Origin: Lytechinus pictus
Lineage: Eukaryota
Length of the DNA: 64,000 nucleotides
Direction: 5' to 3'
NCBI RefSeq assembly: GCF_037042905.1
Contig: NC_087247.1
Location: 63,123,097 to 63,187,096 of the forward strand
Shown here: positions 3,816 to 59,900 of the stretch, piece after piece
Layout of the letters: each line of letters starts with the position of its first letter
Numbering within the stretch: position 1 is the first letter of the stretch
Made by a program: the position numbers and the translations under genes
The notes under the pieces: model-generated
What the model was told of the DNA's origin: nothing
The model's database searches: none
Seen by the model: only the letters and a program-made list of their open reading frames with translations

Positions 3816-4344
3816 CAAAATTGAGTTTTCTCATCTTATTCATAAAGATATGATTATTTTTACTTTAAACAGCTGAAAGCAATTGATTTTAGCATAATTA
3901 TGGTTCAAAAAGGTTGTGCAAAAAATCTGGTGAAAAAAACAAAGAAAAACAAAAGGTTGAAAAACAAAGAAATACATAAGAAATTAATAAAACAATAGAA
4001 TACATAAGAAATTGATTTCCAAACTAAAGTTTTTTTAATTGCCATTGTTAAGAATGCTACAAAGAATATTTTTACCACAAATTAGCATTCTAGGAGCTTT
4101 ATTTAGTGAATTAGAGCAAAAAGTATGATTTATGCATGAATTAGCATAATTAATTCATATAAAATAAAATCTCATTATTTTGGAAAATTGTACCATACAG
4201 CCTTGTAGATTACATCGCACACTACCAGCGTGCAAATTTTTTGCGGCGCTCGCGCGATCGGCGGTCGAGATCTCAGGGGGGGGGGGGTGAATCAACCCCC
4301 CCCCCCCCGGCCACAGAAAAGCCAAAAAAGCCCGGCCTAATTAG

Positions 4345-8444: not shown

Positions 8445-10707
8445 CATGGACCACTAGTAGGCATGGGCGGAAATCCCAGGGGGGACAGGGGGGACGTGTC
8501 CCCCCTACCCAAAATAGTAGGGGGGACACAATATCAAATGTCCCCCCTACTATTTTTGGTATTTTACGATGGAGAAAAATGCATCATTCACATTCGAAAT
8601 AATACATGTATTTTGGACTAAATGACCTTACATTTTGGGTGAAAACCTTCGTTTTTTTTTTTTGGGGGGGGGGGGCTTGTCAAATTTTCCAGAGTGACTA
8701 AAATAAGATGAGGGGAAGACTTGGAAAATAAAAAGAATCTTTCATGTCACTATATGAAATTTTCGCTCGCGCTTCGCGCTCGCATTGCCTGTCAGGTGAT
8801 TTTTCAATATGGAGTTTAAATATCAAGTTTGGAAGTCAATATACATTACACATTTCGGAAATCGAACTTTCATTATTTTGTGTGATTTACAAACTGATTT
8901 TTAAAAAGTGCTCTGTAAAAGTGAGAGCTTCATGGTCTGAATATTGACATTTTCTGCTCGCACTGAGCGCTCGCAAATTTCGATTTATTAAGTACCTATT
9001 ATTTTTGTGTATTCCATTTAGTTTGAAAAAATCAAGTCTGATAGTCAAAACGTATCAGATAGCGCTGGCTACTCGCTCGCATTTAATCGGCGATTTATGT
9101 ATGTCTCAATATTGATTTTCATGACAGTTTATCAAAGATTTTGGCTCGCGATTTGCGCTCGCATTAATGGTTAAAAAATATTTTGACCGATGCATTCTAT
9201 TTATAATCACAAAATTGCTTGAAATGTCCAGCCTTCAGGCCATAATATCATCAGATTTCTCGCCCTCATTAGGCATTAATAGATAAGATATTAATAATTT
9301 AACGATTAAATTGTCCCTTTTGTTTCATCTCGCACCTAGCAAGAGGAATAGGGAGATAGTCATCATTTTCATATGACATGTCCCAAGGATGTCCCGGTCC
9401 TATGTCAAAACTCAAATAACAATGAAAAATATCAGCTCTTTTAGTGCGATCCGTATCAACCTCACAATTTTCCTACAAAGTGCTTGAAATATATATAGCT
9501 GAGATGGACTCTTTTTCAGATTTTTCATGATAAAAGAGGTGTAGAATGCCTAGATTCTAGGTCTAAATCTGAAACACGCGCATGTTTATTCAGATATTCA
9601 ACTTGTTCTATATTTAAATCATTATCCAGTTTCAGATCACAATATCAAAAATTGTCTGCTCGCGCTTTGTGCTCGCATTATTAATGTAGAAAGATCCCCT
9701 ATTACTCATCCTTTTCATGATTTACAAAACATGAATAGAGTGTCCTGTTTTTAGGTCTAAATCTCGAATTTTTCTGCTCGCGCTTCGCTTGCATCAATTG
9801 GTTAGTTATATAGCTACCCTGTTCACGATTACGAAAATTGATTAAAATTTTCGATTCTTTTTGTAGAAATGTCAACAATTTTCAGCTCGCGATTCGCGCT
9901 AGCATTATTTGATTGTTGAAATATGTAACGTCTTTATGGCTAAGTGCACGCAGTCCTTAACAAGTACCTTTTCGATCAGTTCAAATTAAAAAAAACATTT
10001 TATGGCTGCACTTTGCACTCGCATTATTAATGTAAGGACCGGGTGTAAGGAAGGCCCCCAATTACTCATCTTTTCATGATTTACAAAACATGAATAGAGT
10101 GTGTCGTTCTTAGGTCTAAATCTCAAAATAGTTCCGCTCGCGCTTCGCGTTCGCATCAATTGTTTAGTTTTATACCTATCACATGTTTCAGTTACAAAAA
10201 GTGCTTAGAATTTCCATTCTTTAGGCAAAAATTTAAGCTCGCGCTTCGCGCTAGCATTATTTGATTGTTGAAATATGTAACGTATTCATAGCTAACCTTT
10301 TCCATCAGTAAACATCTGCTCGCACTTCGCGTTCGAAGTAATTATTTAGTTGCATATACATCTTTTTCAGGATAACAAACATTGCCCAGAATGTTCAAAT
10401 TTCAGGAAAAATACATAAAATTTCCCCCCCAAAAAAAAAAATTTGCTCGCGCTTCGCGCTCGCATTATAGATAAGGATTATGATATTATATATTTATGTT
10501 GAATTATAAGAATAAAGCTAAAAAGTGGCCATGAGGACTACTCCTTCAATGAAACAAACAAAAATCATCTTCGAGCGGCCGATCGGGGATTAACATACGG
10601 CTGAAAAAAAAAAATTCGCCCCCCCCCCCATTGGCGAAGGCTGGATCCGCCCCTGTTGTCCCCCCTACGTTTCGGGACAGATTTCCGCCCATGCTAGTAG
10701 GTCCATG
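8445..10707 (+). mobile_element. Non-autonomous TIR element carrying an internal ~135-bp satellite (family 'S')
   Basis: TIR CATGGACCACTAGTAGGCATGGGCGGAAATC at 8445 pairs with GATTTCCGCCCATGCTAGTAGGTCCATG at 10680-10707. The possible 7-bp TSD CCATTAC/CCATCAC has one mismatch. Between the TIRs are about 12 tandem units with the core GCTCGCGCTTCGCGCTCGCAT (8760-10460), plus G- and C-homopolymer runs. Confidence 0.75.
8760..10460 (+). repeat. Tandem satellite, ~135-bp unit, core GCTCGCGCTTCGCGCTCGCAT
   Basis: The core recurs at 8761, 8950, 9062, 9136, 9657, 9776, 9884, 10008, 10136, 10236, 10318 and 10443. Confidence 0.85.
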
Positions 10708-11199: not shown

Positions 11200-13716
11200 G
11201 TCGCCCGTATGGCAAGCCGTTTTAACATTTAATCCTATTTCTTGATATCAAGAATTCATTTCTTGATATCAAGAATTTGATTTGTTGATATCAAGAATTC
11301 GATTTCTTGATATCAAGAAATCAAATTGTTGATATTAAAAACTTGAATTATTGATATCTTGAAATAAATTCTTGATGTCTCTTGATTTCGAAAGTAAGTC
11401 TATTGCAAAAATTATTTGGATATCGAGCACAAAAGTATTACACAAATGTTTAATTCATTTCCAGCTCAAAAGTTGTGCAGAATTGAAATTCATAGTTGAT
11501 TTCCAGCGCACAAGTAATGCAGAAAATTTATTCTGATTTCGAACTCAAAACTTGTGCACGATTATATTTTGATTCGATTTCGAACTCAAACTTGTGCACG
11601 AATTCATCCCGTACCAAGCGGCCATCTAAGTTTACGTAAGCATTTTTTGTTTGGTCCGAAATCATATTGCCAGCTTGCAGTTCATTTACTGTCTTTGTGA
11701 TATTTCTTATATAATATTTTTATTTTATACTTTTTAAACATAAACCCTAGATTACTATTCCTAAAACGATTTTAACTTGATTTTGTCCCATCAAAATTAC
11801 TTGTAAGATATGAAAAGATGTGGTTAAAAAAACGTAAAACGGCAACATATCTAGAATTCATTTCATTATGTTGCCAAAAGACAATGCACACACCTGTATG
11901 AAAGATCACCCCGTGTTTTATATCATAGCCACGTTTTTACTGTACAATTCATTTTAGAAAATTATGGCTGCGTCAAATGAAATGTTATTGGTAGATTTGA
12001 TTATTTTTAGCAAAAAAAAAATCAAAATTAACTTACAAAGCACCCATTGGAAAAATAACAATTTGGCCTCATATCACGAACTCATGTGGAAACAATGAAT
12101 GTGTGCTATGTTGCCAAATTGTGCATTTACAATGCGTAATTTGTAAGTATTCTTGAAATTATTTTGCTTTTAAAATATCAGATCTGACGTCATTATTCAA
12201 AATAAAATACGAGTATGTTTTACATTTAACCATTCAGAAAAACGCTAAGACATATTTATTCCACAAGTGACAATTTTTACAACTGGTTTATCAACTGTTA
12301 TATTGGCAACATATCAAGAAATCATTTCGTGATATGTTGCCGTTTTATATTTTTTTAAAGATACATTTGTATTATGATTATTTGATTAGAATTAACTGAC
12401 CTAGAAACAAATATATATTTTTTTAAATTTTATAATGAACATGCACTATTTCTGATGCGCAGAGCTAACTAGCTACATGTATATTGGCATGCTCAGAACA
12501 AATTCTGCCAGTCGGACCGCGACAGCAATTTGTGTACAACACAAAGTTTTGAGTTCGAATTCCACTATTTTGAAGCAAAAACAACAACTTATTTTGAATT
12601 CTATTCGTCACAGTGGCTCCCGTATTTGGAATGCCATAAATTCTCATATTGCATCTACCATGTCTACTGGTAAATTATCAATATTAAAGGTAAAGTACAA
12701 GTCCTCCTTGCTAGCAGGATATGTACTGTAAATGTACTTTTCTACAACTTTTAATTAAACTGTACGTGTTCTTGTGTGTTTTGTTTATATGTCTCTCTGT
12801 CTTGCCTAAAATATTCTATATATTTTTTATGTATGTTTTAATTTCTCATGTTTTATTATTGCCTTTCTTAGTAGCTCATGTGCATGAATGCGCGTGTGCG
12901 CGTGTGTTTTTGTGAATTTAGGTACTTGCCGTACATTTGTAAGTTATTTCATTCTCATCTTCCTCTCTCTTTCTTCTCTAGGCTCCTCTCCTGTCTCCAC
13001 TTTCATTTTTTCGATATACCTCCTAGCTCTGCCTTCTTCTTTTAATTCTATTCCTTAATCTTCTGCCCTCTACACTTTCTTCTCTCCTATTCTGTTCGCT
13101 GATGTATAATATACATCAGCGAACAGAATAGGAGAGAAGTATCTTAGCACTGTATATTATGTTTTACAGGTGATCTATGTCTTACAAGCTGTGCTTTTTA
13201 ATAGATCACCTCAGTTCTGCATTTTAATTATTGTTAATTATTTATTGTTACTTCTTTGATGACATGTATAATGTTTTTGCAGAATTGAAATAAACTTGAA
13301 CTTGAGCACGTGGCGTAGGTAGTTTGCATGCGCACACCCAGGGGCTGAATGGGATTGTGCACAAATTTTGAGTTCGAAATCGATTCACAGTACAATCGTG
13401 CACAAGTTTTGAGTTCGAAATTGAATCACAGTATAAATCGTGTACAAGTTTTGAGTTCGAAATCAATTTCTGCATTAATTGTACGCTGGAAATCAACGAT
13501 GAATTTTAATTCTGCACAACTTTTGAGCTCGTTTGCATGTGCTCGATATCCAAATTGATTCTTGCAATGATTTTGTGCTCGAAATAAATCACGTAACAAT
13601 TCTTGATATCAAGAATTCGTATTCTTGATATCAAGAGATGAATAAATGATATCAAAAAATCGAATTCTTGATATCAAGAAATAGGATTAAATGTTAAAAC
13701 GGCTTGCCATACGCCC
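11200..13716. mobile_element. Long-TIR (~450-500 bp) non-autonomous DNA element
   Basis: 11200-11610 is the reverse complement of 13340-13716. The TIRs contain the subrepeats TTCTTGATATCAAGAAT and TCGAACTCAAAACTTGTGCAC, and the termini read CGTATGGCAAGCCGTTTTAACATTTAATCC. The interior includes a perfect 27-bp-arm palindrome at 13081-13137. No transposase ORF is present. Confidence 0.8.
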
Positions 13717-15150: not shown

Positions 15151-15587
15151 TGGCTTACCATTTCCTTCCTCCTCACATTAAATTATCCCCTAGTATTAAT
15201 GTTTTCAAATATAAAATTGTTGATATGTAGCTTATGGACTCCGGTACCCCCCCCCCCATTCCCTGTTAGGTTTACATCCTTCATATTTGTTTTTCTGATT
15301 TTCTGTTTTTTATCTAAATATGTTTTCTGTTGATTACTTCTATTTTTTAATCATTTATGTTCGTTACTGTTTCCGTTTATTTTCTGTTTCTCCTTTTTTT
15401 AGATCTGTTATTTTCATGTGGTTTTATTGTGTTCACCTTAGACATGTATATGCAATTGTTTTTTTTTTTGGACCCCACGGGAGACCAGCATGACTGTGCC
15501 AGTGAAGCTGAATGTGGGCAATCCACCCTATTTTGTTGTATACATGCTTTTAATACGAAAATAAATACTACTACTGCTACTACTACT

Positions 15588-17556
<1,969 letters not shown>

Positions 17557-18100
17557 CTACTACTAATACTACTACTTCATCTTCTTCTTCTTTGTATCCT
17601 CCCCAACCGCGACCATGTCAAGTCGTTGGCTTGTAACGAGGATATGGCATGGGGAGGGATGTGCCCCCTAATATCCACAAAATATCATTACTTTGATAGC
17701 ACAGTCACTTGTTTTGTATACCTGCGAGTTGAGTAGCTTTAGGGCTGTATTAAACAATTTCCAGTTCCAAGATGACTGTATTCGAGGCATATTTTTATAT
17801 TGTGAATTGTGTATAACATATTACTGTTATTTTGATATAGTGTACATTTTCTCGTATTTTTAAAGAACAGGAAACATGATAAAGATTAAATATATAGATT
17901 AGATAGAAGACTGTGTATTGAATGGATATTTCACTTAACCCATCTATCCACACATTGCGCTATCTCTCTCTCTCTAAATGTCATGATCTTTCTACGAATC
18001 GTTTTTTATGCATGTCTGTCCGTCTATCTTTTTATAATGTGTTAACTTTCTTTCTGTCTTCATTATATCTTCCATCCCTTTCATTTATCTCTTCATATAG

Positions 18101-22380: not shown

Positions 22381-24112
22381 ACAGTGCGTCTAAAAAAAAC
22401 TATACACTTTTGAAAGGGCTACCAAACAAAAAATATGTCACTTTGGGGGGAAATATCTATATATATGGAAAGCCAATAAAGTCAACTTTCAGATGACATA
22501 AAGAAGTTGGAAAACTATTCATGCTTGAGTGAGCACTACCCACTAAAACAAAGGGTATGAAAATTAGGGAGGGCAGGAATTAGCCTTCTGATTTCTCTCA
22601 GTTTTTGAGAGGCGAGTCCCTTGGAACTTGCAAACTCGAGGGTGTTGTGATAAATTAATGGTCATTCATTATCAATTTAAATTGTTAGAGCAAACTTCAT
22701 GAATTATCAAATTGAACTTACATGCGTGAGTGAGCGTGAATTGCAATCTTTAGTGCAGCATTTTAACTTTACAATGTGGATCTCAGCAGTGTGTTCACTG
22801 GAGTCAGGAGAATAGGGGTAAGATAGGACTTCAGTGGGTGACGTAAGCTGATGGGAAAAGGGTCAACAGAACGTTTAGCCTCCCTCCTACAGGTCCGCCC
22901 CCCTCCTGTTTAGATCGAGACTGATTGCTATTACATGTACGCATGAAGTCTTAGCGGACTGTCAATTAGATAATAAATTCTGAATATTAGGTCATCAACT
23001 TTTACCATCAATCATTCAATCAGCAATTTGTTAGTAAATCAACTCAATCAATGTGAACAATCAAACATTAATCTTTTTCAATAAATTATTAATCAAAAAT
23101 TCAGCTTTCTCAATAAATTATTTCATAAATCACCATAATTAGTCAAGTTTTTAATAATCATTCAACGAGAAGAAAGACCCATCAACCATTAGCCACTTGG
23201 CATTTAAGTTTTAATACCATTCGGGAGAAAGAAAGGGGGTGGAGGGCGGGGGTGAGGACATGATTTGTAATTTGTAAGAGAACACAAAGAAGAATGCCCC
23301 TTTAACCCAGTCTTACCCTATCTCACCCCCTTGCATGTAACAGGTACATGTACCATCACATTTCTCTGACTCTCACAAGCACAGTTGCTAAAATCCACAT
23401 AATAAACTAAAAATGCAACGCCAAAATTATAATTCTTGTTTACTCATACATTATATTTCAATTTAGTAACTAAAATTTGCTTAAGAAACCAAAACTGATC
23501 TCAATTCATCAGTAACTTAGCATCCTCAACCTTGCAAGTTCCAAAGGACTCACCTAAAAAAAAACTAGAAGGCTAATTCCTGCTCACCCTAGCAAAGGCT
23601 AGTCTATCAGGAGGGGAGAAAGGGGTAGAGGGGGGGGGGGTTAAGTGTTTTGTTGACCCTTATCCCATCAACCTACTTCCCCCACCTAAGTCCAATCTCA
23701 CCCCTGTTCTGACTTCCATGAACGCATTGCTGAGATCCACTAGAAAAAGTTAAAATTGTATTTCATGTTCAGTCATGCATTAAATTTCAATTGAATAATT
23801 CTTGAAATTTGCTCTAAAAACCTAAATTGATAATGCTTGATCATTGATTTATCACAACACCATCAAGTTTGCAAGTTCCAAGGGACTCGCATCTCAAAAA
23901 CTGAAAGAAATTGGAAGGCTAATTCCTGCCCAGCCTAATTTCCATACCCTTTGTTTAAGTGGGTAGTGCTCACTAAAGCATGAACAATTTCCCAACTTTT
24001 TGGTGTCATCTGAAAGTTGACTTTATTGGCTTATAGGTATTTTTCCCCAAAGTGACATAATTTTTTTATTGGTAGCCATTTCAATAGTGTATAGTTTTTT
24101 TGAGACGCACTG
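22381..24112. mobile_element. Long-TIR DNA element (~1.7 kb) in PARP4 intron F-G
   Basis: 22381-22830 is the reverse complement of 23670-24112 (ACAGTGCGTCTAAAAAAAACTATACAC ... GTGTATAGTTTTTTTGAGACGCACTGT). The internal sequence GGAAGGCTAATTCCTGC occurs at 23560 and 23915 and in reverse complement at 22570. Confidence 0.75.
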
Positions 24113-27780: not shown

Positions 27781-28140
27781 GTTAGTGATGAAACAAAGTC
27801 CCATGATATCAAAGAAAATAACACTAATAGTATTTACTTATTTACGTATTTTCAAAAGTGTACATATACATTATTAAAGATACTGTGCATGATATATGAA
27901 AAGAGAGAGATAGTGAGAGAAGCAGAGGGAGGCATTTAATAAGTTTCATTTTCTTTTTATTTGACTGGTGTTTTCAAAATAATTATCTCGATTTATCTGT
28001 TCTCGTTCTTCCATAGTCGGAATAAAAACACCATGGACATGGTGTTGCCTTGCAAATTTGCAAGATAAAAGCTTACGTGCTTGAGAAAGGGCTTGAAAGA
28101 TAAGTTTCAACAAAGATTAGGAATTTCATAACCTTTAAGG

Positions 28141-30104
<1,964 letters not shown>

Positions 30105-30167
30105 CTTTAAGGTTTGTATTATATTAAATGATTCTAAGCTTGAACTGTGATTACTTTTGTTCTAAAG

Positions 30168-35177: not shown

Positions 35178-35224
35178 GTAAGTATAATGAATCTAATCCC
35201 CATTGGCAAAGTATACACCATGTA

Positions 35225-35520
35225 CTAGGTGCAGTGGCGTACCGTGAGTCGCGCTCAATCGCCAGGTATACTGACCTAATAGAAACATTTTAAGGACAGT
35301 GCTTTAAACGGAAATGTATCTCACTGATCAAATAATGCATACCTGTCTCGCTAAACAAACATTGCGATTATAATATAACATTATAATGAACAGTGATTTC
35401 TTCTTTCCCACTACGTTTCTCTTTCTTTCTCCCTCCCACTTTTTCTCCTCCCCCTTTTTTTCCAGCCGATGGGGGGGGGGGGGGGGGGGCACGTGCCCCC
35501 CATGCCCCCCGTAGTTACGC
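35225..35520 (+). mobile_element. Fragment of the S-family / hAT-like element (terminal region)
   Basis: GTGGCGTACCGTGAGTCGCGCTCAATCGCCAGGTATACTGACCTAATAGAAAC is homologous to 15990-16110. It ends with G23-CACGTG-C6 and the TAGTTACGCCACT terminus. Confidence 0.6.
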
Positions 35521-35783
35521 CACTAACTAGGTGAAATGTTATCTTGTATTTATCTCACACAACTGCGTGTTATACACAAATCGACCAGATAATGTTTTAT
35601 TGTAACTCCTATATCAATTTTAACTGTCTGTCAATATTGGTGGCAATGAGGATCAAAACTATTGTTATGATATTTCTATACTTACGATACATTTCATATC
35701 GCGATCTCCGCGTAGCGAGACATACATAGAAACCTGGTATTCTAACTTATATGTGAATTCCTTTCTTATTTGGTTTAATCTAG

Positions 35784-39050: not shown

Positions 39051-39794
39051 GTAAGAGTGACTTTCAATACATTTCCTGATGATTTTAATCTCTTTTGTCA
39101 AATAAACATCAAAATACTCTGATGAAGCATTTTGAATTAAGGCATTTTCTCACTCATTTAATTGATTTAAATTGCAATGATATGTTACATCATGTGATTC
39201 TTTTATGTAATCTTATGTAATCTAGTGTAAATAGGGCATGGTGCTGATATGACTTGAAATGCCTTTTTTATGACGATTTGTATTGTACATGCTATAATAT
39301 CATGTAAAATGATGATAACGTAAACGTTTTTACATCACGGTTGTCTTTATCTGATTACAAACATTTCGTTAAAATTGTGGGACAATCTGTTTCGTTAAAT
39401 GCTTCATAAATTACAAATTCGCAGATTTAGGAAAAATTGTTCTTGACCAAAATCAGCAGAGAGTAAAAAGCTTTCGAATTTAATTGAGAATAAATTGAAA
39501 TCGAAAGTCGCTATTGATACTCCTCGAAAATTAATGACAAAGTGTCCCCTCTACTTGATTCGACCATTGATAAGTAAAACCATGATGCAAATGATAAAAG
39601 CACTGTCCATGTTATTTTGTTTTGTTCAACTAAATTGCTCAAAAAAACAACAACTGAATTTTATCCCTTTGTATTTATGAAATTGGGTAAGCAAGTGCGG
39701 TGTCGATTCTGGCTATATATCGATAACCGTGTTACTGTCCTATCGATATCTCTTCATCAATGAACTATCTTCATGCTCATACTTTATGCTGCAG

Positions 39795-41703
39795 ATGCAA
39801 AAATCTACTAAACAAGGAAGACCTTAAGACGTGGAAAGACCAAAAGCAAGCGGTGGAAATGGGAACTTCTATCAGCACATGTGATGAATTAGAATCTGAG
39901 TCTCTGGTTCTCGAAGAAGAAATAATTGTTCCTGAGGAAGAGACTGTTGTCATGAGTTCCCCTCCTATAGATCAAGGTTTAGAAGTCATAGCCGTGGAGG
40001 AGGTGAAATCTATGCCATTATTTCTCGAGGAAGAAACATACTACGAAGCTTCATGTGATGTCTACGAGACGGTGGAGGAAATAACAGTTTATCATCCAGT
40101 ATTATTGAAAGCAGCTCCAGAGCAGGCAGCCCAAGAGTTACCCATCATGCATGAAATTAAATCAGTCAGTAAAGAATCTTACATTGCAGAACATGCTGAG
40201 ATAATCGAATGTATCGAGCCATCAGAAAAAATGGAGTTACGAGCTGAGTCACCCGTGATGTTGGAGGCAAGACGAGCTCCTTCACCAGTGATGTTGGAGG
40301 CAAGACGAGCTCCTTCACCAGTGATGTTGGAGGCAAGACAAGAGCTATCACCAGTGATGTTGGTGGCAAGACGAGAGCTATCACCAGTGATGTTGGAGGC
40401 AAGACGAGAGCCATCACCAGTGATGTTGGAGGCAAGACGAGCTCCTTCACCAGTGATGTTGGAGGCAAGACGAGCTCCTTCACCAGTGATGTTGGAGGCA
40501 AGACGAGAGCTATCACCGGTGATGATGGAGGCAAGACGAGAGCCATCACCAGTGATGTTGGAGGCAAGACGGGAGCCATCACCGGTGATGTTGGAGGCAA
40601 GACGAGCTCCTTCACCAGTGATGTTACAGCGTGATGAATCTCCCGTGCTCATGATGCGCGAATCAGCCAAACTTTCATACGCATTGGCAGAACATGACGA
40701 GAGAGTCCAATTACAGCGTATTGAGCCAGTAGAAATGGAGTTACGAGCTGAGTCACCCGTGATGTTGGAGGCAAGACGAGCTCCTTCACCCGTGATGATG
40801 GAGGTAAGACGAGAGCCATCACCAGTGATGTTGGAGGCAAGACGAGAGCCATCACCAGTGATGTTGGAGGCAAGACGAGAGCCATCACCAGTGATGTTGG
40901 AGGTAAGACGAGCTCCTTCACCCGTGATGATGGAGGTAAGACGAGCTCCTTCACCAGTGATGTTACAGCGTGATGAATCTCCCGTGCTCATGATGCGTGA
41001 GGTTCAATCAGTCCAGCTCTCATACGCAACAGCCGTGGCAGAACCTGTTGAGACAGTCCAACTAGAGCTGGAACTACGAGCCAAATCACCCGTGATGTTG
41101 GACGAAATACGAACGCCGTCACCGGTGATGTTACAGCGTGCTGAATCTCCTGTGTTAATGATGCGTGATGCTCAATCAGCACAGCTTTCATATGAAATGG
41201 CAAAACCTGTTAAGACAGTCCAATTAGAGCCTATTGAGTCAGAAGAACTGGAACTACGAGCCGAATCACCCATGATTTTGGATGCGGTACGACCTGTGTC
41301 ACCGTTGTTGTTGGAGGCAAGAAGAGCCCCGTCACCAGTGATGTTGGAAGCAGTCCAAGAAGTGAAAATGTCACTAGCAAGTGCTGTTGCGGAACCCATT
41401 GAACGACTACATGTTGAAAGCAGAGATGAGGAGTTAGAAGAGATTGAGGTCCGTGCTTCATTACTTGATCAGATATTTGAGACGGTTCGATCGACCAAGT
41501 TACATGATGACGTTCAAGATCATGTTGAGAAGCTACGACGGATGCCTGATGCCTGTGCTCCCTACAAATCGTATCTGGCGACTTCTCCCAAAGACAAAAA
41601 AGATGAGAGTGTGAACGACGAGAAGAAGGTTGATGGGGTTGTGAATGATCAAGATAAACCAGGAATTGAAACAATGAGGCGTTTGCTAAAGATATCACAA
41701 GAG
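39795..41703 (+). CDS. PARP4: PARP4-like exon Y: 636-codon tandem-repeat exon (about 25 copies of SPVMLEARR[AE][PL], separated by QRDESPVLMMR. spacers)
   Basis: Acceptor tgctgcag|A, donor CACAAGAG|GTGAGT. A single long ORF sits in the same frame as exons X and Z. It lies where human PARP4 has its S/P-rich low-complexity region, and it ends ..DKPGIETMRRLLKISQE. Confidence 0.65.
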
Positions 41704-42399
41704 GTGAGTTTAAAATGTACCTCTTATAAACATAAACAATTGATCGTCATCTTTTGGTCATTCATCGATTTGCTCAAAATGTTCTTACTTTTTTATTCTT
41801 CCCTTTACCTGTTGAAACACTTAACACATAAGTGAACTGCTTAGTACATCTACTTTCTGACGTGTGCAGTTAAGTTTCAGTATATTTATTTTGATATCGA
41901 ACTTTTTTGTATTAAACTTAAGTAATACATGAATATAATGGTAACGATACCAGCCTAAAGATAGGAATTCAGTAGCTAATAGGTCACAATAAATGCACCA
42001 TATCACAATGCAACTTAATTTTGTAAAGTAATCCATATACTAATAATTTGGTGTACCTGGTTCATTCGATTCATTCATACTTTTTAATAATTTATCTACA
42101 TGTTTATTTTGCACGGCCACTCTGTTTCATCATACCTATAACCATAATAAATCTTATATTTTGATGAAAGATGTCCCTCCTCAACAGTTTCCGGACACTT
42201 GCCCCTGTGACAATTGCTCCTAATGAAAATGTACACGTTAAGCCAAAGATAGACCTGGGCTTCAAACCTTACCTTAATCCTTATCCTCACTTGATTCTGA
42301 ACTAAAAAACCCTATCACAACCCTAAATCTCCCATCTTCAGAAAAATTAACAAGGGGTGATTGTGTCGAGAGAGCGCAACTAGCAGGCGCTGATCCAAG

Positions 42400-43680
42400 G
42401 GGGGGGGGGGGGCGAGCCGGCCCGCCCCCCCCCTATTTTTTGGCAACCCCAACAAAAAAAACTTGAGAGAAACGCTAAAAACAGAAAGAAAAGTTCGAAG
42501 GGGGTATTATACCCATGTTTAATTTACGGCCTCGTAACTGCCGGCCCGATCCCCACAGAGGCCTACTCGCAGTGGCACCGCACTCTGCATTGATTCACAT
42601 GCAGGGAAACCACGCTACCGCAACTGCGCATCAAGACATTGTCCTGCACATTGGGTTTCCTGCACTCCATCAAAGGCCGATTAGCTCAGCATAGGACGAT
42701 TACCTTATGCGCACAAGTAGGCCGTAAAACATTAAAAAATGCCTACAATGTCCCGTTTCCAGGCCTTAATATCAGATTTCGAGCTCTCATTAATATTAGA
42801 TGATAAAAGAAATGTATTAAGAATGCCCAGAGTCTATGGCCCGTATTCTGAAGTCAGGTTTAAGTTAAACCTGACTTCAGAATACGGACCTATAGGTCTA
42901 AATCTCAAAAACACGTGCACACAATAGATACGCAGTTTTTTTCTCAAAAGGTGCTTGAATTATCCAGTTTCATATCAGAATATCACAAATTTTCATCTCG
43001 AGCTTCGCGCTTGCATTTTGTAGGAAGATACCCAATTTGTCATCCTTTTCGGGATTTACGAAACATGAATAGTGTGTCCCGTTGTTAGGTCTATATCTCA
43101 TTTTTGTTCGCTCGCGCTTCGCGCTCGCATGAAATGTTTAGTTATATACTTATCCTATCTATGATTATAAAAAGTGCTTAGAATGTCAAATTTTTAGGTC
43201 AAAATATCAAAAAATTTCAGCTCGCGCTTCGCGCTCGCATTATTTGATCATTGAAATATGTATCGTTTTCATGGGTAACTGCAAACAGTTCTGTTTTCCA
43301 TCAGGCCAGATCGTATATTAAAAATACCTGCTCGCGATTCGCGCTTGCAGTAGTTATTTAGTTACATACACATCTTGTTCACGATCACAATCATTGCTCA
43401 ATATGTTCAATTTTCAGGACAAAAAAAGAAGACATTTCCTAAAAAAAAAAGCTTGCGCTTCGCGCTTCTACTATTCAATTAGGGCTTATATGAGAATATT
43501 ATTTATTAATTTATGTTTTGTTAGAATAAAGCTAAGAAGTGACTACCACTTCAAAGAAAAAAATACAAATCAACTTTGAGCTGCCGATCGGGGAAAATAT
43601 GAGTAATTTTTATTTTCGGCCCCCCTATTAGCGAAAGCTGGATCCACCCCTGACTAGCGAGGTAACTCTTTGACAATGGT
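42400..43680 (+). mobile_element. S-family satellite-bearing element copy
   Basis: GCTCGCGCTTCGCGCTCGCAT units at 42990-43480. The right end GAGCTGCCGATCGGGG...AGCTGGATCCACCCCTG is homologous to 10560-10660. A perfect 26-bp hairpin lies at 42838-42895. G12/C9 runs sit at the left end. Confidence 0.65.
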
Positions 43681-48362: not shown

Positions 48363-50600
48363 CCCAGCACGCGACGGGGAGTTTGTTTAATGTCACCCGC
48401 AACGTTCGGCACGCGCATAATGGGACACTAACTTGGAACGATTTTTGTGATAAATACGGCGAACATGTGGTTGGAAAATTGGTTATATCTCCAGAAAATG
48501 CACGTATATGCAGCTAAATTTGGTATCAGTGTAAAGCATGAACTATAACAAAGACCGTCATGGTATTTACAGAGCAGCAATCGGCAGCAATTTGTAAAAG
48601 AAATGCTCATGAAAAAACCAATTTCCAAAAACCCCCATTGTCAAATGGTTTCGTCCAAAATTGCCTCTGAAGGGATTATCATTTTATCTTGAAAATCTTT
48701 GATCACTGAAAACAATCATTTATCAAAGAGCACAGTGAATTAGAAATAAATTAAGCAATCCGTTTTGTTAAAACAGTGAAATATCTAAAACGTGTCATTT
48801 ACACATGCGGTAGCCGTAAAGAGTCATTTTCCGGTAATATTGAATAAAAATGAGCAACTAATAATCAATGTAATGGAGAAATATTGTATGGAGGCATTAT
48901 ACAGGTTATTATCTTTGATTAGAACATGAAAAAAAAACAAAATTTGGTTCATGACCAAAAACCAGTTTTGGCGCACTTTTGCTCTCTCCTGGCCCACTGT
49001 GCGCCGGTTTTCCGACGGCGGCGTCAACACCAAATCTTAACCGAAGGTTAAGTTTTTGAAATGATAGCATAACTTAGAAAGTATATGGACCTACTGTAGT
49101 TCATGAAACTTGGCCACAAGGTTAATCAAGTATTACTAAAGACCCTGCTTGAGTTTCAGGTCACATGATCAAGGTCAAAGGTCATTTAGGGTCAATGAAC
49201 TTAGATCATGTTGTTGGAATCAACATCAAAATCTTAACCTAAGGTTACGTTTTTTGAAATGTCATCATAACTTAAAAAACATATAAACCTAGTTCATGAA
49301 ACTTTGACATAAGGTCAATCAAGTATCACTGAACATCCTTCAGCTTACATGATCAAGGTCAAATGCCATTTAAGGTCAATGAACTTTGGCCACGTTGGGG
49401 GTATTTGTTGAATTACCATCATAACTTTGAAAGTTTATTGGTCTAGTTCATAAAATTTGGATATAAGAGTAATCAAGTATCACTGAACATCCTTCAGCTC
49501 ACATGATCAAGGTCAAATGTCATTTAAGGTCAATTAACTTTGGCCACGTTGGGGGTATTTGTTGAATTACCATCATAACTTTGAAAGTTTATTGGTCTAG
49601 TTCATAAAATTTGGATATAAGAGTAATCAAGTATTTCTTAACATCATGTGCGAGTTTCAGGTCACATGACCAAGGTCAAAGGTCAATGAACTTTCGCCAT
49701 GTTGGGGGCATCTGTTGAATTACCATCATAACTTTGAATGTTTATGGATGTGATTCATGAAACTTGGACATAAGATTGTAATCAAGTATCACTGAACATC
49801 CTTCAGCTCACATGATCAAGGTCAAATGTCATTTAAGGTCAATTAACTTTGGCCACGTTGGGGGTATTTGTTGAATTACCATCATAACTTTGAAAGTTTA
49901 TTGGTCTAGTTCATAAAATTTGGATATAAGAGTAATCAAGTATCACTTAACATCATGTGCGAGTTTTAGGTCACATGACTAAGGTCAAAGGTCGTTTATG
50001 GTCAATAAACTTTAACTATGTTGGGGTTATTTGTTGAATTACCATTATAACTCTGTAAGTGTATTGGTCTAGTTCATAAAACTTGGACATAAGAGTAATC
50101 AAGTAACACCGAACATCATGTGCGAGTTTCAGGTCACATGACTAAAGTCAACGGACTTTGGCCATGTTGGGGTTATTTGTTGAATAACCATCATAACTCT
50201 AAAAGTGTATGTATCTAGTTCATGAAACTTAGACATAAGAGTAATCAAGTATAACTGAACATCTCATGCGAGTTTCTTGTCACATGATCAAAGTCAAATG
50301 TCATTTAAGGTCATCGAACTGTGGCCATTTTGGAGGTAATTATTAGATTGCTGTCATAAATTTCAAAGTTTATAATAAAGTTTATAAAATGTGGATATAG
50401 AGGTAATCAAGTATCACTGACAAGTCTTAGGTCGCATGATCAAGGTCAAATGTCATTTATTGTCAATGAACGAAGTATTTTATCATTATATGAATGGTGT
50501 TTTTTGTGAATAATTATTTTATGGTAGTTTTCAAAGTCAGCACTGCTGCTATATTGAATCGCGCGATGCAGGTGAGACTGCCAGAGGCGCTCCACTTGTT
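46925..50600 (+). mobile_element. TIR element carrying a ~175-bp satellite, with a nested ~1.95-kb insertion in its 5' end
   Basis: The 5' end TCTCACCTGCGAAGCAGAGTGAGACTGTAGGC and the 3' end ATGCAGGTGAGACTGCCAGAGGCGCTCCACTTG at 50560-50600 are homologous to the short copy at 57765-58255. The inverted 35-bp pair 46985-47020 and 48955-48990 brackets the inserted segment. The satellite spans 49030-50480. Confidence 0.6.
49030..50480 (+). repeat. Tandem satellite, ~175-bp unit x ~8, each unit containing AGGTCAAAGGTCA-type direct repeats
   Basis: Units recur with TAACTTTGAAAGTTTATTGGTCTAGTTCATAAAATTTGGATATAAGAGTAATCAAGTATCACTGAACATCCTTCAGCTCACATGATCAAGGTCAAATGTCATTTAAGGTCAAT. Confidence 0.9.
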
Positions 50601-50949: not shown

Positions 50950-53360
50950 CAATCACACATTAATATTCTCTAAAACTGAGGAGGGATTATCGATCAAAGA
51001 CAGATTTCTAAACTTTTTTGAGGAGTTTATATATATATATATATATATAAACACATAAGGGTGTGTGTGTGCGTGCGTGTGTGTGTGAGTGTATGTATCA
51101 CAAAGGCAGGGAGTGATTACACTATTAGAAAAGGAAGGCAAAAACCCTTTATACATTCAAAACTATAGACCAATCACGCTTTTAAATGTTGATTACAAGA
51201 TCTTATCAAAGGTATTAGCAAAAAGATTGAAAAAGGTTCTGAATGAGATAATTCATATTGATCAAATAGGGTATGTTGAAAATAGGAACATTGGAGATGG
51301 TGTGAGATTAATCGATGATATTTTATTTCAGTCCTCTTTTGGAAATATTGGATATTTGATCACGGTGGACTTTAAAAAGGCTTTTGATTCTGTTTCCCAT
51401 GATTTTCTTTTTCAGACTCTTAAATTATTTGGATTTGGCCAGTCTTTCTGTTCTTGGGTTCGTGTTTTATATACAGATATAACTAGTTGTATTATGAATG
51501 GAGGTTATTCCACTGGTTATTTTGATATAAAACGAGGGGTAAGACAGGGGGACCTCCTTTCTCCTTATATGTTTTTGCTGTGTATAGAAACACTAGCTTT
51601 GGCAATAAGAAGAGACGCTCTAGTTGAAGGAATTCAGTTTGGATCTCATGAAATTAAGCAAATATTGTATGCCGATGATATCACTCTGTTTGTTAAAAAT
51701 AGCAATTCTGTTAAACGGCTTAAATATCTTTTGGAAGAATTCGAAAAAGTGAGCGGTCTGAAGATAAACAAAGGGAAAACTAACTTTTTTTGGATGGGAA
51801 AAGATCAAGACAGACCTCAAACTCCGCTATTTGGAAATTTGGTTCAGCAAATTAAAATCTTAGGCGTTTATTTCTCTCTAAATGTAATAATAAAAGAAGA
51901 TCTCAACTTCAAAGAGATACTTAGCAAAATAAAAAGACTTTTGGGATGGTGGAAACAAAGGGATCTAACCCTAATGGGTAAAATACATTTGTTGAAAAGT
52001 TATGCATTATCAAAATTAAATTACGTCTCGTCACTTTTAGTTGTTCCTAACTGGTTGTTCGTTGAGGTGGAACGGATCACTTTTGAGTTTTTATGGTCAG
52101 GTAAAGACCGTATAAAGAGAAACATTATGTATCAGGATTACTCACACGGTGGGTTAAGAATGATGAATTTTAAGTTGTTCATAAAGGCCCAACGTCTAAT
52201 GTGGCTGAAACGTCTATTATACGGGGAACGCAATGCTGGGTGGAAATTGTATTTTGATTTCTGTTTTAGATCACTCGGTGGGAGACTGTTATTTCTATGC
52301 GATTTTGATAATTACAAATTAACACAGACAATGCCACAATTTTATTCTGAAATGCTGAAGGCTTGGCAAGATATGAGAAAATATAGATATACAAAAGAGG
52401 AAGTAAACCCGATTATATTTAATAATAAGAATGTATGTGTAAGAGGTAAAATGATTTTTGATATTGATCTTTATAATAAGGGAATATACACTGTAGATCA
52501 TATTTTTGATAACGGGGTTGTGAGACCTGTGGCTTATTTTCAAAATCTTGGGGTAACCGCAGATGAACTGCTCCACATTATTGATATAGTACATGCTATT
52601 CCAACTACTTGGAAAAATGCCTATAGCTCTATTAAATTTATAAAGATTGACGATGAGAACTTCAATGTTAATTGGAATATCAGTAAGCTGGAAACTACTT
52701 TTGAGGTGATTAAATAAAAAACGATTTATAGTTGTTTTGTTGAAAATTTACGGGAAACTTATAATTTAACATTGAAAGATAAAAACATTAATTTGAATTT
52801 TACAGATGTTGAAATGTGTAATAGGCTTGCCCAAACCAGGAGCATAACTTTGATTAGGAAACAAAGAGAATTCCAGTTCTTACTTTTACACGGGGCGATT
52901 TATACCAAAGAACAGTTATTGAGATTTGGGTATGTTAAAGACAGTTTATGCTCTTTTTGTGGCAGAGAAACCGAATCATACATTCATATTTTTCTAAATT
53001 GTTCCAAGGTAAAACCTTTATGGGAATTTTTTATTAAATATTTCTGTATGTCTGAATTAAGAGATTTAGAATGGAGAGATATACATTTGGGATTATCTGG
53101 AAGTACGAATAAAAATAATTGTGTAAACTGTATAATCTTTTTCATCAAATATGCCATTTTCCAATCCAGAACTAATGGTCAGGTTCCTTCCTGCCATAAA
53201 ATACAAAAATATATTGCGGAACGTAGAGAGGAAGAAAAATGCTTAGCTATAAAATCGGGCAAATTGAGTTTGCATGTAAGGAAATGGGAAGAACTGAAGG
53301 TGAATGAGGCAGTGAATGCAAACAGGTGTGAAGCGTCTGCTGGTGCTGTGAGTATGTAAT
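50950..53360 (+). mobile_element. 5'-truncated CR1/L2-like LINE (reverse transcriptase plus C-terminal zinc-finger region) with one in-frame stop
   Basis: ORF 51089-52717 has the RT motifs NYRPITLLNVDYKILSKVLAKRL, KAFDSVSHDFL and YADDITLF. ORF 52772-53359 is in the same frame after a single TAA and contains CSFCGRETESYIHIFLNCSKVKPLWEFF. No endonuclease domain is present. (AT)n(GT)n lies at 51011-51095. Confidence 0.8.
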
Positions 53361-57764: not shown

Positions 57765-58255
57765 TTTGTCTCGCCTGCATAGCAGAGCGAGACTATAGGC
57801 GCCGCTTTTCCGACGTCGACGGTGGCGTCGTCAACATTGAAGTCTTTTAAGTTTTTGAAATGTCATCATAACTTAGAGAGCATATGGACCTAGTTCATGA
57901 AACTTGGACATAGGGGTAATAAAGTATTACTGAACATTCTGCCTGAGTTTCGGGTCACATGGTCAAGATCAAAGGTCAATGAACTGTGGCCATGTTGGGA
58001 GTATGTGTTGAATTGGCATGGATCTTGCTCATGAAACATGAAGTATGAATGATTGGTTGCACATGTCTTACGATGTAGGTCACATAATCATAGTCAAAGG
58101 TTATTTTGGGTCAATGGACATATTTTGTTATCATATTAGTGTTTTCGTCTGTAAATAACTATTCATTAACTGTTTTCAAAGGCAGTACTGCTGCTATATC
58201 GAATTGCGTAATGCAGGCGAGACTGCCAGAGGCGTTCCACTTGTTATTTTTCTAA
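57765..58255 (+). mobile_element. Short copy of the 175-bp-satellite TIR element (~1.5 units)
   Basis: 5' TCTCGCCTGCATAGCAGAGCGAGACTATAGGCGCCGCTTTTCCGACG, 3' GCAGTACTGCTGCTATATCGAATTGCGTAATGCAGGCGAGACTGCCAGAGGCGTTCCACTTG. The terminal inverted motif is CTCGCCTGCAT / ATGCAGGCGAG. Confidence 0.7.
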
Positions 58256-59239: not shown

Positions 59240-59900
59240 TTTTGTGTCTCGCCCACTTATGAAAATAACCCGAAATATCGTGATTTGCGAGGGCACGCAG
59301 CAGAATTGTATCAAAACTTCATTGTGAAATGACTGGGATGGAATAACACTTGTCATAAGAGTCTTGCCCATAAACTTTAATGTTAACCTCAAAATGAACT
59401 TTGACCATTGTGACATCCGAACACAATAACATGCAGGTCTCCTAAGCACACCTACAATCCAAGTTTAATCGAAAAGTGATTTACGGTTGCAGAGTTATGT
59501 GTCATAAGAGAGTCTTGCATGTAAAATTTAACGTTGACCTGAAAATGACCTTTGACCTTACCATGTGACCTCCGATTGCAGCATGACATGCAGGTCTCCT
59601 AACTACATCTACAATCCAAGTTTGGGTGAAAAGTGACTTGCAGTTGCGGAGTTAGGTGTCAAAAGAAAGTCTTGCATGTAAACTTTAACGTTGACCTGGA
59701 AATGACCTTTTACCTTACCATGTGACCTCCGATTGCAGCATGACATGCAGGTCTCCTTACTACATCTACAATCCAAGTTTGGGTGAAAAGTGTCTTACGG
59801 TTGCGGAGTTATGTGTCATAAGGTTTCTGACGGACTGACGACATTTGGATCCCTAAGTCATGTAAGTCTCGCCTTCACCTCCGGTGGGCGAGACAAAAAG
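59240..59900 (-). mobile_element. Related satellite-bearing TIR element, opposite orientation (~120-bp unit x 4)
   Basis: The termini GTGTCTCGCCCAC at 59245 and GTGGGCGAGACA at 59880 are inverted. The units at 59330-59820 contain TGACCTTTGACCTTACCATGTGACCT, which is the reverse complement of AGGTCACATGGTAAGGTCAAAGGTCA. Confidence 0.7.

Follow-up and report, generated by a model that had tools for sequence, protein, structure and literature searches.

Non-autonomous hAT-type transposons carrying tandem units with a conserved 21-bp core, a candidate transposase-binding site

Elements of the window and their classification

The 64-kb window (the whole stretch of DNA analysed here) harbours five transposon-type elements of 0.3-2.2 kb, designated A, B', B, D and C in the order of their occurrence and bounded by inverted repeats and 8-bp target-site duplications, within which lie all the matches, at three or fewer mismatches, to the 21-bp core described below. 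The duplications are exact in four of the five elements (A, B, B' and D) and form the basis of the corrected boundaries listed here; that of C is imperfect (GCAACTAG / ACTAGCGA), with ACTAG common to both copies but offset.

8462-10693, + strand: element A, 2232 bp, non-autonomous element of the hAT type delimited by an exact duplication and by inverted-repeat pairing; terminal inverted repeat CATGGGCGGAAATC, 14/14 paired
8454-8461 and 10694-10701: target-site duplication of A, CTAGTAGG
15588-17556, - strand: element B', 1969 bp, reverse-oriented copy of B
15580-15587 and 17557-17564: target-site duplication of B', AGTAGTAG on the - strand, equal to CTACTACT on the + strand
28141-30104, + strand: element B, 1964 bp, non-autonomous element of the hAT type; terminal inverted repeats CAGGGCCGTAGCTAGA / CAGGGCCGTAGCCAGA
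28133-28140 and 30105-30112: target-site duplication of B, CTTTAAGG
28208-28833, + strand: five copies of the motif AGTYGGCAAA in B, with a sixth at 30048-30057
35232-35525, - strand: element D, 294-bp miniature element; terminal inverted repeats CAGTGGCGTACC / TAGTGGCGTAAC
35224-35231 and 35526-35533: target-site duplication of D, ACTAGGTG
42384-43652, + strand: element C, 1269 bp; terminal inverted repeats CAGGCGCTGATCCA / CAGGGGTGGATCCA

The original prediction had placed the repeat inside at least five elements bounded by terminal inverted repeats. Five such elements were indeed recovered, with D devoid of the core and with shifted boundaries for A (now 8462-10693) and C (now 42384-43652).

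The terminal inverted repeats are short, mostly with a CAG-type start, and are followed by hairpins of G and C runs, which confirms the long G and C homopolymer runs noticed earlier near the element ends. The YARNG start of hAT elements is seen in B (CAGGG), C (CAGGC / CAGGG) and D (CAGTG, with TAGTG at the other end); the outer inverted repeat of A starts with CATGG and departs from this pattern at position 3. CTAG occurs in three of the five target sites (CTAGTAGG, ACTAGGTG and ACTAGCGA) and none of the five fits cleanly to nTnnnnAn, the consensus of Ac/Buster-type target-site preference. Repeated short subterminal motifs, which serve as a criterion for hAT elements, are present in B and B', in the ends of A (motifs of the GTAGGGGGGACA type) and, in the form of GCTCGC cores, beside the C-type and D-type termini. 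The subterminal motif proper to B is AGTYGGCAAA, found 12 times in the window against 0.37 expected, with all the copies in B or B' (six in each).

No transposase was revealed in the window when all six frames were scanned for the hATC signature and the open reading frames were compared with Pfam, MACPF and PHD being the sole, weak matches. The elements must be mobilised in trans by a transposase encoded outside the window. Judged by their sequence features, the five elements are classified as non-autonomous, non-coding cut-and-paste DNA transposons of the hAT type. Assignment to the Helitron or foldback class is ruled out by the 8-bp duplications and the short inverted repeats. Element B is located within an intron of a PARP4-like (VIT/VWA) gene, and D likewise occupies an intron of a PARP4-like gene. 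The VIT exons of this gene had their best database matches at 52-65% identity; for a LINE reverse transcriptase, marine (TARA/SOLA) metagenome contigs matched best, at 65-88% identity, and among named sequences the maximum was 43%, in a coral.

The tandem units and the 21-bp core

The arrays and a representative core are located as follows.

8736-10473, + strand: array in A, 12 core-bearing units and 2 core-less partial units
8765-8785, + strand: perfect core, GCTCGC-GCTTCGC-GCTCGC-AT
16026-16666, - strand: array in B', 6 units
29024-29664, + strand: array in B, 6 units, 3 with perfect cores
42930-43485, + strand: array in C, 5 units spaced 110-121 bp, 2 with perfect cores

The unit measures about 110 bp, and not about 135 bp as originally proposed, with a core-to-core spacing of 81-132 bp and outliers of 191 and 514 bp. 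A profile of the unit gave 36 unit-like matches in the 64 kb, all of them inside the five elements and none elsewhere, which upholds the earlier claim that the units are confined to transposons with inverted repeats and duplications at their ends; units without associated inverted repeats were not encountered within the window. The arrays hold 5-14 units, all in one orientation, and are situated towards the right end of the elements. The array in A is interrupted by about 500 bp (9165-9657) and contains a duplicated block of three units (9632-9943 versus 9976-10295, 75% identity), while D retains a core-less remnant without any intact core.

Outside the core, similarity between the units is near background: flank identity among those seven units whose cores are perfect ranges over 48-75%, shuffled sequence giving 50%. 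No ~110-bp array was called by TRF at scores of 50 and 30, and neither of the hallmarks of a satellite, namely long arrays detectable by TRF and free-standing arrays outside mobile elements, was observed within the window. The term 'satellite' used in the original prediction thus overstates the repeat. A search of the whole window against Rfam at gathering thresholds returned no match, so that nothing indicates a derivation of the unit from a tRNA or a SINE.

Conservation is instead concentrated in the core, GCTCGCGCTTCGCGCTCGCAT, for which 19 matches were found in the 64-kb window at three or fewer mismatches (0.00 expected) and 25 at five or fewer, in four blocks at 8765-10465 (+), 16145-16605 (-), 29085-29545 (+) and 42996-43350 (+). 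Ten copies are exact, with starts at 8765, 10445, 16145, 16253, 16585, 29085, 29417, 29525, 43110 and 43220. The core has a mean information content of 1.62 bits as compared to 0.41-0.49 bits for the flanks, and pairwise identity among the cores is 85%. The core consists of three direct GCTCGC-like hexamers (two perfect GCTCGC 13 bp apart and a GCTTCGC variant) and is itself reported by TRF as a 6-bp unit in 3.2 copies. GCTCGC is enriched in the window (43 occurrences versus 5.5 expected, 36 of the 43 inside elements). The core had been described as palindromic; its DNA hairpin (-4.8 kcal/mol) is no better than those of shuffled sequences (z = -0.3), and direct hexamers are found in place of a palindrome. 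A literature search found no paper giving the core sequence.

Several explanations may be considered for this pattern. The view underlying the original prediction is that of a passive cargo, in which the elements picked up a ~110-bp tandem repeat of an ordinary kind in a single event and have carried it along, the core having no role for them and being simply its slowest-decaying or latest-homogenised part. Variation of array copy number through block duplication agrees with such an origin, and tandem repeats in non-autonomous transposons are well documented (PMC9659126; hAT MITEs of cod, PMC12368964). However, a 21-mer rich in CpG would be expected to erode no more slowly than the AT-rich sequence on either side; in seven units with flanks near background similarity it is nevertheless 100% identical, and not a single unit lies outside the elements in the window; passive carriage is considered rather doubtful.

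The uniformity of the core could also be an artefact of GC-biased gene conversion or hairpin-driven slippage, a possibility raised by the presence of a GC-rich core inside AT-rich units. The unremarkable hairpin speaks against slippage, conversion within arrays cannot account for the identity seen between elements or between unrelated contigs (see below), and such an artefact is regarded as highly improbable.

A third alternative is that the core is a site for a host factor, either a ZBED-like or DREF-like BED protein or an E2F-like factor, or that it acts as a CpG-methylation switch. The element might thereby gain open chromatin or replication coupling, or the host might co-opt the arrays as regulatory or boundary elements. 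The core contains five CpGs, GCTCGC (the ZBED6 motif) and, as read from the sequence, the near-E2F heptamer TTCGCGC, and the location of B and D in introns of a PARP4-like gene would suit such a role. The Ac transposase binds its CpG-containing subterminal sites in a methylation-dependent manner, which is counted here in favour of the same alternative. The cores in the older copies A and C, on the other hand, have decayed (35 substitutions over 12 cores, 9 of them CpG transitions) and give no indication that the host has kept them under purifying selection since they inserted; a host-factor site, in any of these variants, is judged unlikely.

Probable composite organisation and recent mobility

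At least four terminus types are present among the elements (CATGGGCGGAAATC, CAGGGCCGTAGC, CAGGSGYKGATCC and CAGTGGCGTACC), and the grouping of the elements into a single transposon family, as originally proposed, is not sustained. Two of the elements contain a further right terminus in their interior.

10639-10655, - strand: internal C-type right terminus in A (reverse complement CAGGGGCGGATCCAGCC), 38 bp inside the right end of A
29687-29702, - strand: internal D-type right terminus in B (reverse complement CAGTGGCATACCGTGG), located 57 bp beyond the last degenerate core and 402 bp inwards from the right end of B

Element C aligns colinearly with the right half of A (71-78% identity), and the alignment of the two stops exactly at the internal C-type terminus of A. 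Similarly, the alignment of B with D ends at the internal D-type terminus of B, and D is 88% identical over 90 bp to the right arm of the inner element of B, of which it is taken to be a deletion derivative. Each of the two elements A and B has, next to its array, a right terminus in addition to its own, and on the basis of these stacked right termini both are inferred to be composites. Maize Ac/Ds macrotransposons and alternative-end transposition provide a precedent for composites that are moved by their outer termini and retain unused internal ones, and A and B, as far as two stacked right termini indicate, resemble the macrotransposons in this respect. It is only in the composite B that the array looks like a passenger: it adjoins an internal, apparently unused terminus in an element with a different subterminal motif, both of which favour the passive-cargo explanation.

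Over 1556 nt the elements B and B' are 100% identical; they lie inverted relative to each other, about 10.6 kb apart. They differ only in the lengths of homopolymers and microsatellites, while their flanks and 8-bp duplications are different. Near-identity combined with different duplications shows that mobilisation was recent: B has inserted twice, very recently, and the original prediction is supported in so far as at least one carrier of the arrays has moved. Perfect identity of inverted copies over 1556 nt might also reflect a segmental inverted duplication or an assembly artefact. This possibility is rejected on account of the differing flanks and exact 8-bp duplications; together with the homopolymer lengths, which differ as well, these largely refute the part of the artefact explanation that concerns the pair. 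The pair implies that a hAT system is currently active in this genome or was so very recently, and identical inverted copies at such a distance constitute a substrate for inversion.

The core as a candidate transposase-binding site

The exact 21-mer was also found in nine low-GC metagenome contigs, a search that needed the exact 21-mer and is biased accordingly, with contigs that could derive from close relatives of this organism. In seven of the nine, a CAGKGGCG-type terminus lies 36-200 bp away in the same polarity. These seven contigs have nothing else in common with the window, and five of them represent independent insertions of one family; comparison of the motif-bearing contigs with the window by tblastx gave no match. 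No mention of the accession JAAUYG was found in the literature. In 596 Gb of prokaryote genomes, just 10 matches to the core were obtained; matches in prokaryote genomes and viral contigs are single only and belong to high-GC bacteria or to a genuine phage. Recurrence of the core beside a similar terminus, with similar polarity, in otherwise unrelated contigs resembles the behaviour of a cis-element of the transposon itself. The idea of a satellite carried as cargo fits poorly with this recurrence, with the conservation of the 21-bp core alone and with the lack of any TRF-called array.

As far as can be judged from sequence, the 21-bp GCTCGC-rich motif is less likely to represent a true satellite than a site at which a protein (transposase) docks, and the earlier guess of a protein-binding CGCG core coincides with the explanation favoured here, in which the core is a candidate site. 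According to this explanation, to which about an even chance is assigned, the core would be a cis-acting, transposase-binding subterminal repeat that has been tandemly duplicated in non-autonomous hAT elements, with A and B as composites. The core would serve as the docking site for the BED-finger DNA-binding domain of the cognate hAT transposase. Ancestrally, one or two cores may have been present some tens of base pairs inwards from the right terminus, and slippage or unequal exchange would have duplicated this subterminal segment in tandem, multiplying the cores. Selection among the non-autonomous copies for recruitment of the transposase would then preserve the core while the rest of the unit drifts. 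Enclosure of an array-bearing C-type or D-type element by a second pair of related termini, or its fusion to them, could have produced the internal right terminus, and the array in B may now move partly as a passenger.

Constraint on the core, its association with the terminus and the precedents of ZBED6 and Hermes count in favour of a transposase-binding role. Against it, B has a distinct motif of its own and its cores may be dispensable; the arrays in A and C reach 200-1900 bp from the nearest end, beyond the known cis-requirements of hAT elements; D has a perfect duplication yet no intact core; and the inverted repeat of A starts with CATGG, while the match to ZBED6 is a 6-mer only.

The subterminal repeats of Ac have the sequence AAACGG. 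In Hermes, the BED domains bind subterminal repeats, which are required in cis, and transposition in cells depends on about 220 bp at either end (PMC10368747). The present elements share with Hermes and Ac short motifs multiplied inside the ends and an asymmetry between left and right. The known hAT repeats, however, are 4-6-bp motifs scattered up to about 250 bp from the ends, whereas here the motif is embedded in ~110-bp tandem units spanning more than 1 kb. ZBED6, a domesticated hAT transposase with two BED domains, has the ChIP-seq consensus 5'-GCTCGC-3', of which each core carries two perfect copies and a GCTTCGC variant (PMC2780926). ZBED6 is a gene of placental mammals, and the likeness is limited to a 6-mer, which is weak evidence when taken alone; the chance of such a match against a handful of known BED motifs is estimated at about 5%.

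A wider and distinctly tentative proposal is that the GCTCGC triplet is the ancestral BED-finger site of a widespread hAT clade, the arrays being amplified 'landing pads' that spread BED sites. Such a clade would be characterised by CAGKGGCGKA termini and G/C-run hairpins and might be the lineage that yielded ZBED6-like host factors. Its non-autonomous members would compete for transposase by amplifying the core, and clusters of BED-protein sites would spread through introns. This would provide a concrete route from the cis-sites of transposons to host ZBED regulatory networks. If the core binds transposase, the elements would illustrate how non-autonomous transposons can evolve by multiplying their own cis-sites, and how these persist as near-invariant 21-mers across diverged element lineages; if it is passive, the elements are simply one more instance of transposons with internal repeats. 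The link to ZBED6 further raises the question whether domesticated BED-finger factors inherit both a motif and pre-seeded targets from the parent transposon.

The elements belong to an already known kind, with the core as a docking site providing one testable lead. In their inverted repeats, duplications, non-coding nature, units of about 100-200 bp and varying copy number, they fit the description of tandem-repeat-containing non-autonomous transposons, on sequence grounds. Known examples include Xmix/Xstir and miDNA4 of Xenopus, pearl/CvA of bivalves, DINE-1 with its central tandem repeats and Tetris (PMC9659126), which are likewise non-coding, have internal 100-200-bp units of varying copy number and are spread by transposition. 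Their arrays are usually homogeneous enough to count as satellite DNA and also occur free-standing, whereas no array is detected by TRF here and the 21-bp core alone is conserved; they are Tc1/mariner, Helitron or foldback elements, as against hAT-type elements with an 8-bp duplication in the present case. The gadMor-hAT-1784 and -8043 MITEs of Atlantic cod are hAT-derived, consist mostly of 167-169-bp tandem repeats and include chimeric and nested copies, and a conserved short core is not among their reported features (PMC12368964). Compared by description, they are similar in being non-autonomous, of hAT type and rich in tandem repeats, but their repeats form inverted arms of about 600 bp, unlike the one-sided array in a single orientation observed here. 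A search of the literature on hAT-N satDNA found no match.

The termini of the 'Pegasus-like' silkworm elements BmMITE-13 to -16, which have 8-bp duplications and the termini CAAGGGCGGATCCAG and CAGTGGCGTACCTA (PMC2997013), nearly match the C-type and D-type termini, the likeness covering the termini and the duplication length only; it is counted in favour of the hAT assignment. These silkworm elements are possibly linked to Tip-group hATs such as hAT-4_BM (PMC3942097).

The small hairpin reported earlier near 42838-42895 was confirmed as a near-perfect palindrome of 53 bp at 42838-42890 (no strand assigned), with 26-nt arms, 96% complementarity and z = -12.9. It is present in C and missing from the homologous site in A, and is probably a nested micro-insertion that lies outside the repeat system.

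Core and repeat units

A 21-bp core, GCTCGCGCTTCGCGCTCGCAT, was found to match 19 sites in the window with ≤3 mismatches (expectation from dinucleotide shuffles, 0.00) and 25 sites with 5 mismatches allowed; the repeat with a shared core put forward in the original prediction is thus real. The core blocks lie in four hAT-type elements (A, B, B' and C) that carry arrays of units, and a fifth element (D) is a core-less miniature.

hAT-type elements in the window, with their target-site duplications, terminal inverted repeats (TIRs) and core blocks
A, 8462-10693; duplication CTAGTAGG; TIR CATGGGCGGAAATC; core block 1, 8765-10465, + strand
B', 15588-17556, reverse; duplication AGTAGTAG (own strand); TIR as in B; core block 2, 16145-16605, - strand
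B, 28141-30104; duplication CTTTAAGG; TIR CAGGGCCGTAGC; core block 3, 29085-29545, + strand
D, 35232-35525; duplication ACTAGGTG; TIRs CAGTGGCGTACC / TAGTGGCGTAAC
C, 42384-43652; imperfect duplication GCAACTAG / ACTAGCGA; TIRs CAGGCGCTGATCCA / CAGGGGTGGATCCA; core block 4, 42996-43350, + strand

In a core-anchored alignment the homology among units spans ~110 bp (consensus ...GATTACAAAA.GTGCTTAGAATGTCC.TTTTTAGGTCTAAATATCAAAAATTTTCA-core-TTATTTGATTAGTGAAATATGTATC), and the core-to-core spacings are 191, 106, 82, 514, 118, 109, 119, 132, 101, 81 and 127 in A, 102, 113, 117, 108 and 100 in B and 114, 110, 110 and 121 in C, giving a unit of ~110 bp instead of the ~135 bp predicted. A profile derived from this alignment identified 36 unit-like matches in the whole 64 kb, all within the five elements and none outside them. 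The units do not constitute a satellite in the usual sense, since TRF called no ~110-bp array in the window at score 50 or 30 and the flanks are near the shuffled baseline (48-75% identity among seven perfect-core units; baseline 50%). The core averages 1.62 bits of information content and the flanks 0.41-0.49 bits, and good conservation within the unit is limited to the core. The window is AT-rich eukaryotic DNA (~35% GC) with a CpG observed/expected ratio of 0.78, and GCTCGC occurs in it 43 times against 5.5 expected, with 36 of the 43 within elements.

The core has the structure GCTCGC-GCTTCGC-GCTCGC-AT and is scored by TRF as 3.2 copies of a 6-bp unit. Its best DNA hairpin (-4.8 kcal/mol) is no better than those of shuffles (z = -0.3), and the core, originally described as palindromic, is not a useful palindrome. 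This folding control and the distinct duplications of B and B' also count against gene conversion, structure or artefact as the explanation, which is very unlikely.

Carrier elements and probable composites

Short CAG-type inverted repeats accompanied by 8-bp duplications are the hallmark of the hAT superfamily. Boundaries were set by exact 8-bp target-site duplications (imperfect in C), so that those of the TIR-bounded carriers predicted earlier had to be redrawn; the five elements hold all the unit matches. They are not one family, and A and B are probable composites. All five are non-autonomous, as transposase domains and hATC signatures are absent from all ORFs in the window. CTAG is present in three of the five duplications, CTAGTAGG (8454-8461), ACTAGGTG (35224-35231) and ACTAGCGA (43653-43660), and may represent a target-site preference outside the usual hAT nTnnnnAn consensus. 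The long G and C runs noted near element ends correspond to G-run/C-run hairpins directly inside the left ends of every element type. The hairpin assigned to 42838-42895 also exists (42838-42890 in C, 26-nt arms, z = -12.9); this 53-bp near-perfect palindrome, flanked by TAT/TA and missing at the homologous site of A (~9555), has the appearance of a tiny palindromic MITE nested in C. Silkworm MITEs with 8-bp duplications have termini (CAAGGGCGGATCCAG and CAGTGGCGTACCTA) nearly identical to those of the present elements (PMC2997013).

The right 1.0 kb of A, which also carries a 3-unit block duplication, is colinear with C at 71-78% identity, the alignment stopping exactly at the right terminus of C, which in A falls at 10655, 38 bp inside its right inverted repeat. 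B has only the units in common with A and C, and contains an internal right terminus of the D type (as found on element D) ending at 29702, 57 bp past the last degenerate core and 402 bp inside the end of B. D is 88% identical to this region with a 53-bp gap and is its deletion derivative. The A/C and B/D alignments and the internal right termini thus point to the array and its adjoining right terminus as the unit of inheritance, a module apparently native to C-type and D-type elements and enclosed in A and B within another, related pair of termini. Such composites may have arisen when one element inserted into another and the inner left end was then lost, or by alternative-end use as in maize macrotransposons.

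B and B' are 100% identical over 1556 nt, the only differences being in the lengths of homopolymers and of the (AAAG)n tract. The (AAAG)n microsatellite (~200 bp; 28256-28452 in B, 17238-17449 in B') is unequal in length between the otherwise identical copies. Because near-identity is combined with unlike flanks and unlike exact duplications, B and B' represent two independent, very recent insertions, and a segmental duplication or assembly artefact is excluded. The two copies are oppositely oriented, ~10.6 kb from each other, and lie within or beside a PARP4-like VIT/VWA gene that has exons in the window; linked-site insertion is typical of hAT elements. Ectopic recombination within this inverted pair could produce an inversion, or the intervening interval could be mobilized by macrotransposition.

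Distribution and putative role of the core

A search of JGI metagenomes requiring an exact 21-mer match returned 32 contigs. Of these, 23 show a high-GC bacterial context with a single core match each, consistent with only 10 hits, all single, in 596 Gb of prokaryote genomes; one hit lies in a genuine phage. In about ten soil bacterial contigs (L003, L004, L005, L014, L018, L025-L028 and L032; GC 0.67-0.73) the 21-mer is embedded in conserved high-GC sequence, ...cgctcgggGCTCGCGCTTCGCGCTCGCATtggttgg...gagctctgcttcg, which is a bacterial repeat or conserved non-coding element with no relation to the elements of the window.

The other nine contigs are low-GC and eukaryotic-looking, and in seven the core lies 36-200 bp inside a CAGKGGCG-type terminus, preceded by a G/C-run hairpin, with polarity as in the window. 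Five of the seven are independent insertions of a single family (ends ...CCCCAGTTACGCCCCTG), one ends ...GGGACCGCCACTG and one is a complete MITE of ~480 bp that has two cores and CAGTGGCGTAGCTA inverted repeats. Their common sequence with the window is confined to the core and ≤~10 bp of A/T-rich upstream sequence. With the link recurring in seven exactly matching contigs, whose sources could include close relatives of the present organism, the core regularly accompanies this class of terminus and is no accident of this locus. In the low-GC contigs L016 (1529-1549) and L023 (reverse complement, ~position 2346) no hAT-like terminus was seen near the core, and short inverted repeats enclose it as their loop, caacacacttact[core]aagtgtgttg and aataattggcac[core]cccaattatt, respectively.

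That the repeats are simply carried inside transposons as passive cargo agrees with the architecture of B and with the literature on transposon-borne repeats (PMC9659126; PMC12368964), but is rather unlikely, leaving both the core/flank contrast and the core-terminus link unexplained. A CpG-rich 21-mer that is 100% identical amid near-random flanks cannot be neutral. A host-factor or methylation site is quite improbable, as core decay in old copies (35 substitutions across 12 cores, including nine CpG transitions) speaks against host selection, with no hint that cores are constrained by the host once inserted; constraint seems instead to act on the lineage of active elements, most simply as a cis-requirement for transposition. 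The N-terminal BED finger of hAT transposases binds short subterminal repeats, and Hermes in cells requires ~220 bp of each end (PMC10368747). ZBED6, a domesticated hAT transposase with two BED fingers, has the consensus 5'-GCTCGC-3' (PMC2780926); the core contains two perfect copies 13 bp apart and one variant, the match being to the 6-mer only. On the core/flank contrast, the BED-finger precedent and the ZBED6 consensus, the core is proposed as a putative transposase (BED) docking site, which would have been multiplied by tandem duplication of a subterminal segment and kept intact by competition of non-autonomous copies for transposase. Counting against this proposal, D is without an intact core and B apparently carries a motif of its own; AGTYGGCAAA occurs six times per B element, and its 12 copies in the window (0.37 expected) are confined to B and B'.

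Transposons with internal tandem repeats are already well known, as in the cod hAT-derived MITEs built of 167-169-bp repeats (PMC12368964), and the present elements join that class. Seemingly undescribed are the GCTCGC-triplet core itself, which is nearly invariant, its constant pairing with CAGKGGCG-type termini in several lineages, and the stacking of termini in the composites; a literature search found no report of the core sequence. The class is ordinary, and the specific testable lead is that of transposon cis-sites linked to a BED-finger motif.

Other features of the window

A LINE ORF2 (51089-53359; RT and zf-RVT) has its closest relatives in TARA and SOLA marine metagenome scaffolds (L001 and L002), with 84% nucleotide identity to L001, which points to a marine eukaryote as the source. 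A 691-aa ORF at 39760-41835 contains ~20 copies of the 11-aa (33-bp) repeat PSPVMLEARRA (TRF period 33/99, 91% matches). Separate ~155-163-bp tandem arrays rich in AAGGTCAAAGGTCA / TGACCTTTGACC, detected by TRF at 49289-50471, 57852-58119 and 59351-59822, bear no relation to the GCTCGC units. Two arrays of a 22-bp palindromic unit, TTCTTGATATCAAGAA, ~2.3 kb apart (11237-11370 and 13598-13682), possibly mark the two ends of a foldback-like element. Transposon-like features include a 281-nt inverted repeat pair of 86% identity (22470-22750 / 23752-24032) and a CAG + G13/C13 hairpin (4274-4312). A terminus pair, CAGTGGGCCAG...GTGCGCCAAAAC, lies 2 kb apart at 46989 / 48999, and a solo CAGGGGCGGATCC terminus without cores is present at 55848-55864.
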